This document shows, piece after piece, positions 1 through 3,079 of a stretch of DNA of 64,000 nt. The first letter of the stretch is position 1; each line of letters begins with the position of its first letter. The notes beneath the pieces were generated by a model. It searched no databases. It worked only from the letters and a program-made list of their open reading frames with translations, and had not been told where the DNA came from. The DNA is from Escherichia coli (GTDB lineage: Bacteria > Pseudomonadota > Gammaproteobacteria > Enterobacterales > Enterobacteriaceae): assembly GCF_044324785.1 (NCBI RefSeq), contig NZ_CP172127.1. The stretch is one strand, 5' to 3'. Made by a program: the position numbers and the translations under genes.

Positions 1-90
1 TTTTTTTCGCAATTGTTTCCGCAATTTCTTTCGCGTTTTTTTTCGCAATTGTTTCCGCAATTTTTTGCGCAATTGTTTCCCGAGTTTTTG
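1..90. repeat. Tandem direct repeats (12-bp core, 36-bp higher-order unit) inside the 3' part of the edge gene
   Basis: gcaatt recurs at 9, 21, 45, 57, 69; positions 8-25 are identical to 44-61 (cgcaattgtttccgcaat). The repeats are in frame with the minus-strand ORF. Confidence 0.8.
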
Positions 91-919
91 ATTTTAGACT
101 AACACCATCGATGTCAACCGGTGTTGTTTTCAGATCTCTCTGCGCGTCTTTCAAATTTGTCTTATAGAGATCGGGCACTTTATCGGCAGATAAGTATCCG
201 GATGAAGAAATCTGGTGTGTACGCATGGGGGGCTGTTCACAAAGCATCGAGGCTATATCGTCTTTAAACTCTTTTACATTAAAGTTATCGGCATTAACCT
301 TCCCTGTTATAAACCCCGCATCGGCAATTTTCTTCTCTAATTGTTTTGTACGTTTAGAATTATGAGCGTTGTTATCATAAAACTTTTCAAGAAGGGCCCA
401 CTCCTCAAGTTGCCTTATGTGATTTTTCAACTGTTGATGATCTATTTTATATTCATGTGTACTAGAATCATTTTGATTGCAGGAGTTACAGATTTTTAAG
501 CATAATTTTCCATCAGATTTATCATCTATGGTATCAGTGAAAATATAGGACACTTCAATACTCTGCCCGTACTTATCAGACATCTCATATGACCATTGCC
601 CCGTTCGTTTCGCATTCTTAATGAATTCGATGGACTCTGCAGGACAACCATGAAGAATGGGCAGAATTTTATCAGGATGCTTAATGAGTAAAATTATTAT
701 ATTTACAACGTTTGAAAAGAAATTTTTGCCATTTTTTATTTCATCGATTTTTTCCGCTGAAATGTTTACTAAGTTTTCATTTCCGGAAATGAAAAGCAAT
801 TTGCCATGTGGGCTTTTTTTAAATTGTTCTTCTGTTTTAGAAAAGACATCCTCTTTAAAAGGTGGCAACTCAGTACCAGTAATAAACGGTTTCAATAAAT
901 TCGAATTTGAAATTGTCAT
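1..919 (-). CDS. Hypothetical protein, 5' complete and 3' truncated by the window edge (at least 306 codons); AT-rich; C-terminal part encoded by in-frame tandem repeats (ETIAKK-like)
   Basis: Manual minus-strand translation: ATG at 919-917, GGAG about 8 nt upstream, no in-frame stop through position 2 in markedly AT-rich DNA. Start of protein MTISNSNLLKPFITGTELPPFKEDVFSKTEEQFKKSPHGKLLFISGNEN; end in window RETIAQKIAETIAKKNAKEIAETIAKK. Not in the ORF track because it lacks a stop inside the window. No family recognised. Confidence 0.6.
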   Translation of the reverse strand, partial: MTISNSNLLKPFITGTELPPFKEDVFSKTEEQFKKSPHGKLLFISGNENLVNISAEKIDEIKNGKNFFSNVVNIIILLIKHPDKILPILHGCPAESIEFIKNAKRTGQWSYEMSDKYGQSIEVSYIFTDTIDDKSDGKLCLKICNSCNQNDSSTHEYKIDHQQLKNHIRQLEEWALLEKFYDNNAHNSKRTKQLEKKIADAGFITGKVNADNFNVKEFKDDIASMLCEQPPMRTHQISSSGYLSADKVPDLYKTNLKDAQRDLKTTPVDIDGVSLKSKTRETIAQKIAETIAKKNAKEIAETIAKK

Positions 920-1027
920 ATCTTTGCTCCACTACAGGGTTATCCTGGAGCATGTTGTACATAACATCATGGGCAAAGAATACCAAAAATCGCTCATATC
1001 GATCGGGACAAATATTTAACAAATTCA

Positions 1028-1071
1028 GCCCTGACATTGAGCAGCTTTTTTGCGCTGCGTAGTGTCAGGGC
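1028..1071. terminator. Nested inverted repeat between malZ 3' end and the edge gene start; possible bidirectional terminator or insertion scar
   Basis: GCCCTGACA ... TGTCAGGGC outer 9-bp perfect inverted repeat enclosing an inner GCAGC-ttttttgc-GCTGC hairpin. No clean U-tract immediately after the outer stem. Confidence 0.35.
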
Positions 1072-1106
1072 TGGTGACTAACGACGTAACAAATAAAACA
1101 GATGCT

Positions 1107-2921
1107 TTAGTTCATCCACACCGTAGCCGAAATGGCAGGCAAAGCCAGAATCCCGTCTGTCAGTTGCCCATGGCCTTCTTTGCGTTGCCATTGCACGACA
1201 TTAAGAAACGGTGACGCGGGTAGCACCACTTCACAGGCCTCGCCACGGTTGATTGCCACCAGTACACGCTGCTGATTCAGCACGCGGACAAATACCACCA
1301 CGTTATCTTCCGCATACAGCACCTGACAGCCGCCACGACGCAGCGCCTGACTTTTCTTACGCAGCGCAATCATTCGCTGGTACAACGCGAATAACGCCGT
1401 ATCCTGCTTTTCCACCTGCCAGGGGAACGGTTTACGGCAAAACGGATCGTTTTTACCATCCAGTCCCACTTCATCACCGTAATAAATGCACGGTACACCA
1501 GGCCAGGTGAACAACCAGACCACCGCCAGCGGCAGGCGCGCAATATCCCGACCGAGCAGCGTTTTAAATCGCGCAGTATCGTGGCTATCGAGCTGATTAA
1601 ACATACGTAATTGCTGTTGATGAGAAAGCCCTGCGCGGTAATTATCCATCCAGGCCATACAGGTTTGGGCGTCAATTTGCTGCGGATCATAAGAGATATC
1701 GGTGTTGGCGAGAAATCCCCACAACGGGAATGTGAAGCCGCGATAGTTCATGGCGGCATCTTCCACATCGGCCTGTAACCATTGCCGTGCATCGCCAAAA
1801 TGTTCGCCGACAATATACGCTTCCGGCTGGGTTTCTTTCGCCGCTTCGGTGATCCCAGCAACGTGCTGCATATTATTGCGCGCCCCACCCGCCTCCCCCA
1901 GCATATGCACCACATCCAGCCGCCAGCCGTCCATACTCCACGGCGCTTTCAGCCAGTGGCGGACAATACTGTCTTCCCCGCGATAAATTTCATTCACCAG
2001 ACTTTCCGACTGATAATCCAGCTTCGGCAAGCTGGCATAGCCCAGCCAGTCGAGCGCCGTGCCATCATCACTAAACGAGTACCAGTCGCGCCAGGGCGAT
2101 TCGGGGTTGTGACAAGCTCCTCCCGAGCCACGATTGTGCCTGTCAAACCAGGCATGGGAATCGCCACTGTGGTTAAACACGCCATCCAGCACCAGCCGCA
2201 TTCCCAGCTGCTGCGTATTGTGTCGCAAACGCAGCAACGCTCCATCACCGCCAAACTGCGGATCGACATGGCGATAATCCTCGGTATCGTATTTATGTAC
2301 GCTGGGAGCTTTAAACACCGGATTGAGATACAGCGCCGTCACGCCAAGTTTTTTCAGATACGGCAGTTTTTCGCTGATACCGTCCAGATCGCCGCCATAG
2401 AACGTTGATCCGCCCGCCTGCGCCGTGACCGGTTCATCCCAGTCACGCAATATGATCTCTTGTCCGGCTGCGTGATGGTAATAGACATGATCCTGTTCAG
2501 CTTCACGAGGAAGACTACGGGCGAAACGATCAGGGAAGATCTGATAAAAAATCTGATCCGCAGCCCATTGTGGGCCGATATCCGGTACATCGACGGCAAA
2601 CTGCTCCAGTCGTGCCGGCGGCATTCGGCTGAAGCCCTGCGGTGTAAACCAACGCTGGCGATCGTGCCACAGCAATTTGAAACTATAACGCCGCCGAGGT
2701 AGTCCGCTGGAGAGATCGATCGCCGCCCGCCATGCGGTAACGCCAGGCTGCGGCTGACTGCGCTGCTTATGCATCGCTACTGACGTTTCTTCGTTGTCGT
2801 GTTCTGTACGCAGCATAATGCGCTGCGGTGGGTCTTCGCCCGTCAGCCACAGTGTAATGAGCAGTTGATCTTTGCTTTGTTTAACAAATGGGGGTACCGG
2901 CAGGTGCCATGCATTTAACAT
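1107..2921 (-). CDS. malZ: Maltodextrin glucosidase
   Basis: 605-aa ORF ([22 protein letters not shown]...) recognised as MalZ; second Met taken as start to give the 604 aa I recall. Confidence 0.93.
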
Positions 2922-3079
2922 CATAATTCCCCTGTGATGAAAATCTGATCACCTTGCCATAGCCTAATGCAGGATCACTCATCATCTGAAGGATATTTGG
3001 GGGAGGAGGACGGGGGCGGATAACTTTCGGAATAGCCGGATCAGGATTTCCTCCTGAACCGGCTTACAGAACGCAAGGA

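Follow-up and report, generated by a model that had tools for sequence, protein, structure and literature searches.

malZ, the gene for maltodextrin glucosidase, lies close to the left end of the 64,000 nt stretch of Escherichia coli DNA analysed here (the window, from contig NZ_CP172127.1), on the minus strand and with proY and then brnQ upstream. Beyond it on the same strand is the 5′ part of an orphan gene, which continues past the edge of the window and is annotated as encoding a hypothetical protein of 469–505 aa (ECs_0454 in strain Sakai, EDL933_RS02335 in EDL933). The two are separated by a hairpin, and the order in the malZ-sense RNA is the malZ stop codon, 33 nt, the hairpin, 108 nt and the ATG of the orphan gene. 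The features of this region, numbered from the first base of the window, are as follows.

1–917, minus strand: 5′ part of the orphan gene (ECs_0454/EDL933_RS02335), ATG at 917–915, continuing past the left window edge
918–1010, minus strand: leader of the orphan gene, without a consensus promoter and with the RBS predicted to be paired
1011–1025, minus strand: A/U-rich tail after the stem on the malZ-sense strand (AAUUUGUUAAAUAUU), with a weak U-tract
1026–1073, minus strand: complete stem-loop, 48 nt in total, made up of an 11 bp outer stem, a 4×4 internal loop, a 5 bp inner stem and an 8 nt loop
1026–1036, no strand assigned: left outer arm CAGCCCTGACA, invariant in 12 alleles (originally given as 1028–1036)
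1041–1058, no strand assigned: inner hairpin GCAGC-TTTTTTGC-GCTGC, in which the length of the T-run in the loop differs between strains
1063–1073, no strand assigned: right outer arm TGTCAGGGCTG, invariant in 12 alleles (originally given as 1063–1071)
1074–1106, no strand assigned: 33 nt of insert DNA from the hairpin to the malZ stop codon, with the insertion boundary at 1106/1107
1107–2924, minus strand: malZ, stop codon at 1107–1109

Structure and conservation of the hairpin

The original prediction described a nested inverted repeat at 1028–1071, and the letters there, GCCCTGACA-TTGA-GCAGC-TTTTTTGC-GCTGC-GTAG-TGTCAGGGC, match it exactly. The outer arms of 9 bp that it listed do pair perfectly, but their true length is 11 bp, 2 bp more than was recognized. 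The inner stem (1041–1045 paired with 1054–1058) encloses the loop of 8 nt at 1046–1053. The RNA of the minus strand, which is the malZ sense, gave a fold of −31.4 kcal/mol (z = −5.85) that was equalled by none of 200 shuffles, and that of the plus strand a fold of −36.8 kcal/mol (z = −6.9). The plus-strand fold is the stronger of the two: its internal loop is closed by two G-U pairs and one A-U pair (in order U-G, U-A and G-U), leading to a nearly continuous stem of 20 bp. When folds of 60 nt were ranked over both strands of the 64 kb, the hairpin was the most stable of approximately 32,000, despite its AT-rich surroundings, and on its own strand the malZ-sense fold falls within the top 0.05 %, as is appropriate for the GC-rich, stable stem of an intrinsic terminator. 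The exact pattern of the arms was expected 0.00 times in the shuffled window. Hence, the nested inverted repeat is no product of chance but a genuine hairpin of very high stability.

Among 12 diverse alleles, all 32 of the 32 stem positions were invariant, whereas 16 of the 155 other intergenic columns varied (Fisher P=0.04), and in the neighbouring non-coding DNA about 10 % of columns vary. Alleles differ from one another in both loops (terminal and internal) and in the flanks, and within the element only the length of the T-run (variants T5C, T6C, T6GC and T7GC) and one base of the internal loop were affected. Across 56 nt, approximately 1,102 of 1,126 genomes were at least 95 % identical and only about 2 of the 1,126 fell below 90 %. 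A rare allele, found in strain 19KM1831, carries a G1064T mismatch near the top of the outer stem. Covariation was not seen in the 12 alleles and, because all 16 pairs never vary, the comparative support for the structure is one of conservation only. A search of positions 1000–1100 with the covariance models of Rfam 15 returned no match, even at E-values up to 10.

An insert between convergent stop codons

To place the hairpin in the population, 5,426 complete E. coli genomes were compared. Positions 1–1300 of the window were matched in their entirety in 1,125 of them, and in every other genome the match broke off exactly at the final base of the malZ stop codon (1107), the point at which homology to the insert-free genomes ends. 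A probe for the empty site of K-12 was continuous in 4,295 of the 5,426. At this empty site (acpH-TAA-aacg-TTA-malZ) the convergent stop codons of acpH and malZ are 4 bp apart and there is no hairpin; a terminator-like site was also looked for at the K-12-type junction and none was found. The same 4 bp gap was present in E. albertii, in two Escherichia sp. isolates and in one divergent strain labelled E. coli. As the empty site is shared by these four other Escherichia lineages, it is the ancestral state in the genus, and the additional segment of 1.65–1.72 kb is an insertion.

The insert is AT-rich, consists of one orphan gene and the hairpin, and is present in approximately 1,126 genomes, about a fifth of E. 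coli, including those of O157:H7, O145, 042 and SMS-3-5. The hairpin region was found once per genome in 1,126–1,127 genomes, always at the malZ/acpH locus even when the E-value limit was raised to 10, and hairpin and orphan gene co-occur one-to-one. According to the original prediction, the repeat would simply be the native malZ terminator if it were also present at the malZ 3′ end in genomes that lack the insert. It was absent from all insert-free genomes, both those of E. coli with the empty site and the four other Escherichia lineages, and a native malZ terminator is therefore ruled out; as the hairpin is missing wherever the AT-rich gene is missing, it arrived with the insert. The repeat had also been placed exactly where conserved DNA meets AT-rich DNA, a position that needs correction, as homology ends at 1107 and the 33 nt of insert DNA at 1074–1106 intervene. 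With the end of homology 34 nt from the hairpin, the hairpin is cargo of the insert and not the breakpoint.

The alleles of the insert differ by 3–5 %. The best match to positions 1–1300 among the complete E. coli genomes was 97.7 % identical (96.9 % for Sakai), and the strain from which the window comes therefore has an allele of the orphan gene that is absent among the 5,426 complete genomes, while O157:H7 has the identical sequence over the 89 nt around the hairpin. In one genome, HS-02 (NZ_CP172818.1; locus L003, 1940–3000), approximately 1.1 kb of poly-T and low-complexity sequence replaces the insert, and the same region has a garbled remnant of the hairpin and a lengthened acpH reading frame. 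This partial match to the hairpin was set aside, as the poly-T sequence is almost certainly an assembly or base-calling artefact.

Elsewhere in the Enterobacteriaceae the junction of malZ and acpH is occupied by 0.4–1.6 kb of other DNA (nine loci), which in Salmonella includes an AhpC/TsaA-like gene; in Siccibacter malZ and acpH abut. Given the gap of 4 bp in Escherichia versus 0.4–1.6 kb in other genera, the site has repeatedly gained and lost DNA.

The orphan gene is a more curious object than the hairpin, with no known relatives and a repeat of variable copy number. A search of 1.84 billion representative proteins recovered only fragments of the gene itself, from E. coli and Shigella; it was not found on phages or true plasmids; the protein had no match in Pfam, NCBIfam or PADLOC; and its AlphaFold model (pLDDT 36) was unusable. 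No mention of ECs0454 or Z0502 was found in literature text. Within the gene, a 12 bp (4 aa) tandem repeat (window positions 1–80 and continuing leftward; locus L001, 11930–12090) codes for a stretch rich in lysine, alanine, isoleucine and glutamate, and its copy number depends on the strain, so that protein length ranges from 469 to 505 aa in 4 aa increments. In some strains, e.g. O145 RM9154, the gene is frameshifted.

Possible roles of the hairpin at the malZ 3′ end

The hairpin begins 34 nt past the malZ stop codon in the sense orientation, which is the placement at a gene end that an intrinsic terminator has. On the malZ-sense strand the stem is followed by AAUUUGUU..., also given as AAUUUGUUAAAUAUUU. 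U makes up 5 of the first 8 nt, and the U-tract is interrupted and starts only after two A residues. We scored this tail with a re-implemented TransTermHP-style score and obtained −2.48, a value equalled by approximately 20 % of all window positions; the default tail cut-off of TransTermHP is −2.5, so that the hairpin falls just short of it. A simple scan of the window for terminators did not report the hairpin because its stem is interrupted. After the plus-strand stem, the sequence is GUGACUAACGACG (GUGACUAACG in a shorter quotation), which has no U-run and scores −2.04. A terminator acting in both directions, as had been suggested originally, is not what this arrangement indicates, since a U-containing tail is found on the malZ-sense strand only and both of the flanking genes lie on the same strand.

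The reading that we favour, with about even confidence, is that the hairpin serves malZ in one direction only, as a probably leaky intrinsic terminator or as a stem-loop protecting the 3′ end of the malZ mRNA, and so would keep malZ read-through out of an orphan gene that is silent and off the antisense strand of acpH. The insert landed in the 4 bp gap between the convergent malZ and acpH stop codons in part of the E. coli population, bringing a single orphan gene and, as the upstream end-piece of its 1.65–1.72 kb of AT-rich DNA, the hairpin. A polymerase exiting malZ would then transcribe the hairpin 34–81 nt past the stop codon, and the GC-rich stem (−31 kcal/mol) together with AAUUUGUUAAAUAUUU would most likely cause factor-independent termination in that direction, with the weak U-tract suggesting that efficiency is only partial. 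The stem-loop may also shield the 3′ end of the malZ mRNA against exonucleases, and maltose-induced transcription of malZ would largely be kept from the orphan gene and from the acpH antisense strand. As a gap of 4 bp leaves no room for a terminator, a barrier to read-through would be needed only once a gene sits downstream. We counted in favour of this role the structure and its strength, the position on the sense strand, the strand asymmetry of the tail and the invariance of the stem, and against it the poor U-tract, the lack of covariation and the stronger fold on the antisense strand.

Several loci of other genera that have a gene between malZ and acpH carry a GC hairpin and a T-run at the same place, and the tail scores of these terminators beside malZ are −3.7 to −4.3. 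The closest comparison is with the intrinsic terminators that follow malZ in Salmonella, Leclercia and Citrobacter, which, like the hairpin described here, are formed by a GC-rich stem-loop on the sense strand some tens of nt past the stop codon, with A/U-rich sequence and a further gene beyond it. The stem of our hairpin is, however, much longer and is interrupted (48 nt in total), and its U-tract is weak and begins 2 nt past the stem (−2.48 versus −3.7 to −4.3). Protection of an mRNA end also has a counterpart in the mal regulon, where the REP elements in the malE-malF intergenic region are 3′ stem-loops that stabilize the mRNA. The hairpin shares with these its great stability as an extragenic palindrome and its location in the 3′ untranslated region of a gene of the mal regulon, and could likewise block 3′-to-5′ exonucleases with or without termination, but differs from REP/BIME in its unrelated sequence and in being present as a single copy per genome. 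A repeated-element family of the REP/BIME or ERIC type was considered and rejected, as each of the 1,126 genomes had the hairpin exactly once, even with E-values up to 10 allowed, and Rfam gave no match. A third parallel is found in IS200, whose left end carries a terminator hairpin that stops outside transcription from entering the element. Here too a strong hairpin lies near the upstream end of acquired DNA, placed against read-through from a host gene, though, unlike IS200, the insert has no transposase, no second end structure and nothing that indicates mobility.

The hairpin could instead be an inert passenger with no present role, a remnant terminator or palindrome of the donor DNA that was copied in with the orphan gene. 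We consider this unlikely, though it accommodates the location of the hairpin inside the insert in one-to-one association with the gene, the degenerate U-tract, the absence of covariation and the lack of detectable relatives of the insert that might point to a function. It does not account well for stems that are invariant where about 10 % of the columns in adjacent non-coding DNA vary, nor for the orientation of the A/U tail, which agrees with the direction of malZ transcription. Moreover, the 3–5 % divergence between alleles implies time for decay, but identity is below 90 % in only about 2 of the 1,126 genomes.

Evidence on transcription comes from Cappable-seq data for EDL933. Under 8 conditions, no sense transcription start was recorded for the orphan gene (PMC10469882, supplements 6 and 7), while starts were recorded for malZ (484,466 and 484,476) and also for acpH (PMC10469882). 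An antisense start within the orphan gene was seen in 6 of the 8 conditions, at 487,650 of NZ_CP008957.1 on the minus strand (PMC10469882); this is approximately 230 nt to the left of position 1 and hence outside the window. That no sense start was recorded is consistent with an orphan gene that is silent and insulated. Between the hairpin and its ATG no consensus promoter was found, and short, perfect inverted repeats in the leader (921–927 with 973–979 and 925–931 with 946–952) are predicted to pair the RBS and the start codon, which suggests that translation is masked. A regulatory element for the gene at the window edge, another of the options raised originally, is retained only in the form of a read-through barrier or an attenuator; no transcription start was detected for that gene in the EDL933 data.

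In the attenuator form, ECs_0454 would have no promoter of its own and be expressed by read-through from malZ, and the hairpin, as part of its leader, would set the level of read-through or else stabilize or process the 5′ end of the downstream RNA. The lack of a consensus promoter before the ATG, the missing start in all 8 conditions, the leaky termination predicted from the weak U-tract and the predicted sequestration of the RBS in a second local structure would all be in keeping with such an arrangement. Nevertheless, we regard it as distinctly unlikely, as no anti-terminator pairing was found and the hairpin persists when the whole intergenic RNA of 209 nt is folded, there is no Rfam match, and expression of the orphan gene is itself without evidence.

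It is improbable that the hairpin is a barrier for the opposite strand (and thereby a two-way terminator), stopping or stabilizing antisense RNA from the orphan gene or acpH before it reaches malZ. The stronger plus-strand fold (−36.8 kcal/mol, nearly continuous 20 bp stem with G-U pairs) would suit such a role, and the antisense start at EDL933 487,650 is directed toward the hairpin. However, no U-tract follows the plus-strand stem (GUGACUAACGACG, tail score −2.04), and two G-U pairs falling on one strand are expected by chance about 1 time in 4.

The hairpin is an ordinary feature, an unannotated element of a familiar kind with little importance beyond annotation, and by itself it opens no new question. 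It does mean that malZ has two 3′ ends in E. coli, one K-12-like without an intergenic terminator and one O157:H7-like with an imported hairpin, and that the orphan gene, also imported, is preceded by a strong RNA structure. This should be useful in studies of the malZ mRNA, of antisense transcription over acpH and of the origin and silencing of the orphan gene.

The hairpin and the question of mobility

Two further readings would give the hairpin a larger part. It is highly improbable that hairpin and orphan gene make up an undescribed, self-contained cassette that inserts between convergent stop codons via a sub-terminal hairpin, or that the hairpin is a tuned attenuator which, via read-through from malZ, places the gene under maltodextrin control. 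Least probable of all is that the hairpin mediated the insertion, as a site of recombination or attachment or as a mobile-element end. It is indeed near one end of a precisely bounded insert without target duplication, but the breakpoint lies at the malZ stop codon, at a distance of 34 nt, and neither a hairpin nor a matching repeat is present at the opposite end. There is no transposase or integrase, and the sole gene matches no family. The 1,126 genomes and the 29 metagenome contigs each have a single copy, always at this locus, and phages and true plasmids have none. The suggestion of a recombination or attachment scar is unsupported on these grounds.

In particular, no terminal direct or inverted repeats were found in the insert, the hairpin being its only significant inverted repeat, and at the other end the 20 bp from the orphan-gene stop codon to the acpH stop codon gave a fold that was not significant (z = −1.8). 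No target duplication was found at the junctions, where the overlap with the empty site is at most 1 nt. Near the right end, the sequence ATAAAAC is similar to the stop region of acpH in K-12, but 6–7 extra nt lie between it and the junction, and it was treated as a chance resemblance. No recombinase, transposase or integrase gene was found in the insert, its single gene being the one without a Pfam, NCBIfam or PADLOC match, and none of the 1,126 genomes had a second copy of the hairpin elsewhere. IS200/IS605-type elements carry sub-terminal hairpins, and the insert is loosely reminiscent of them. Core sites like those of attC were examined by eye and rejected, as only one half-site of the pair (ATTTAAC) was seen.

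Viral contigs scanned for the 11 nt arms contained no match. The same scan of metagenomes returned 45 loci. The E. coli locus itself accounts for 29 of them, and the others are hairpins without relation to it or arrays that resemble iterons. In one of the other loci, the terminator of a convergent gene pair has a partly similar inner sequence; this was judged to be a coincidence given the abundance of natural hairpins. Four metagenome contigs contain arrays of a short unit that includes CCAGCCCTGAC. The arrays look like iterons and have no relation to the E. coli locus; among them, a 48 nt hairpin with the same 11 nt arms as the one in the window occurs twice, at a spacing of 169 bp.
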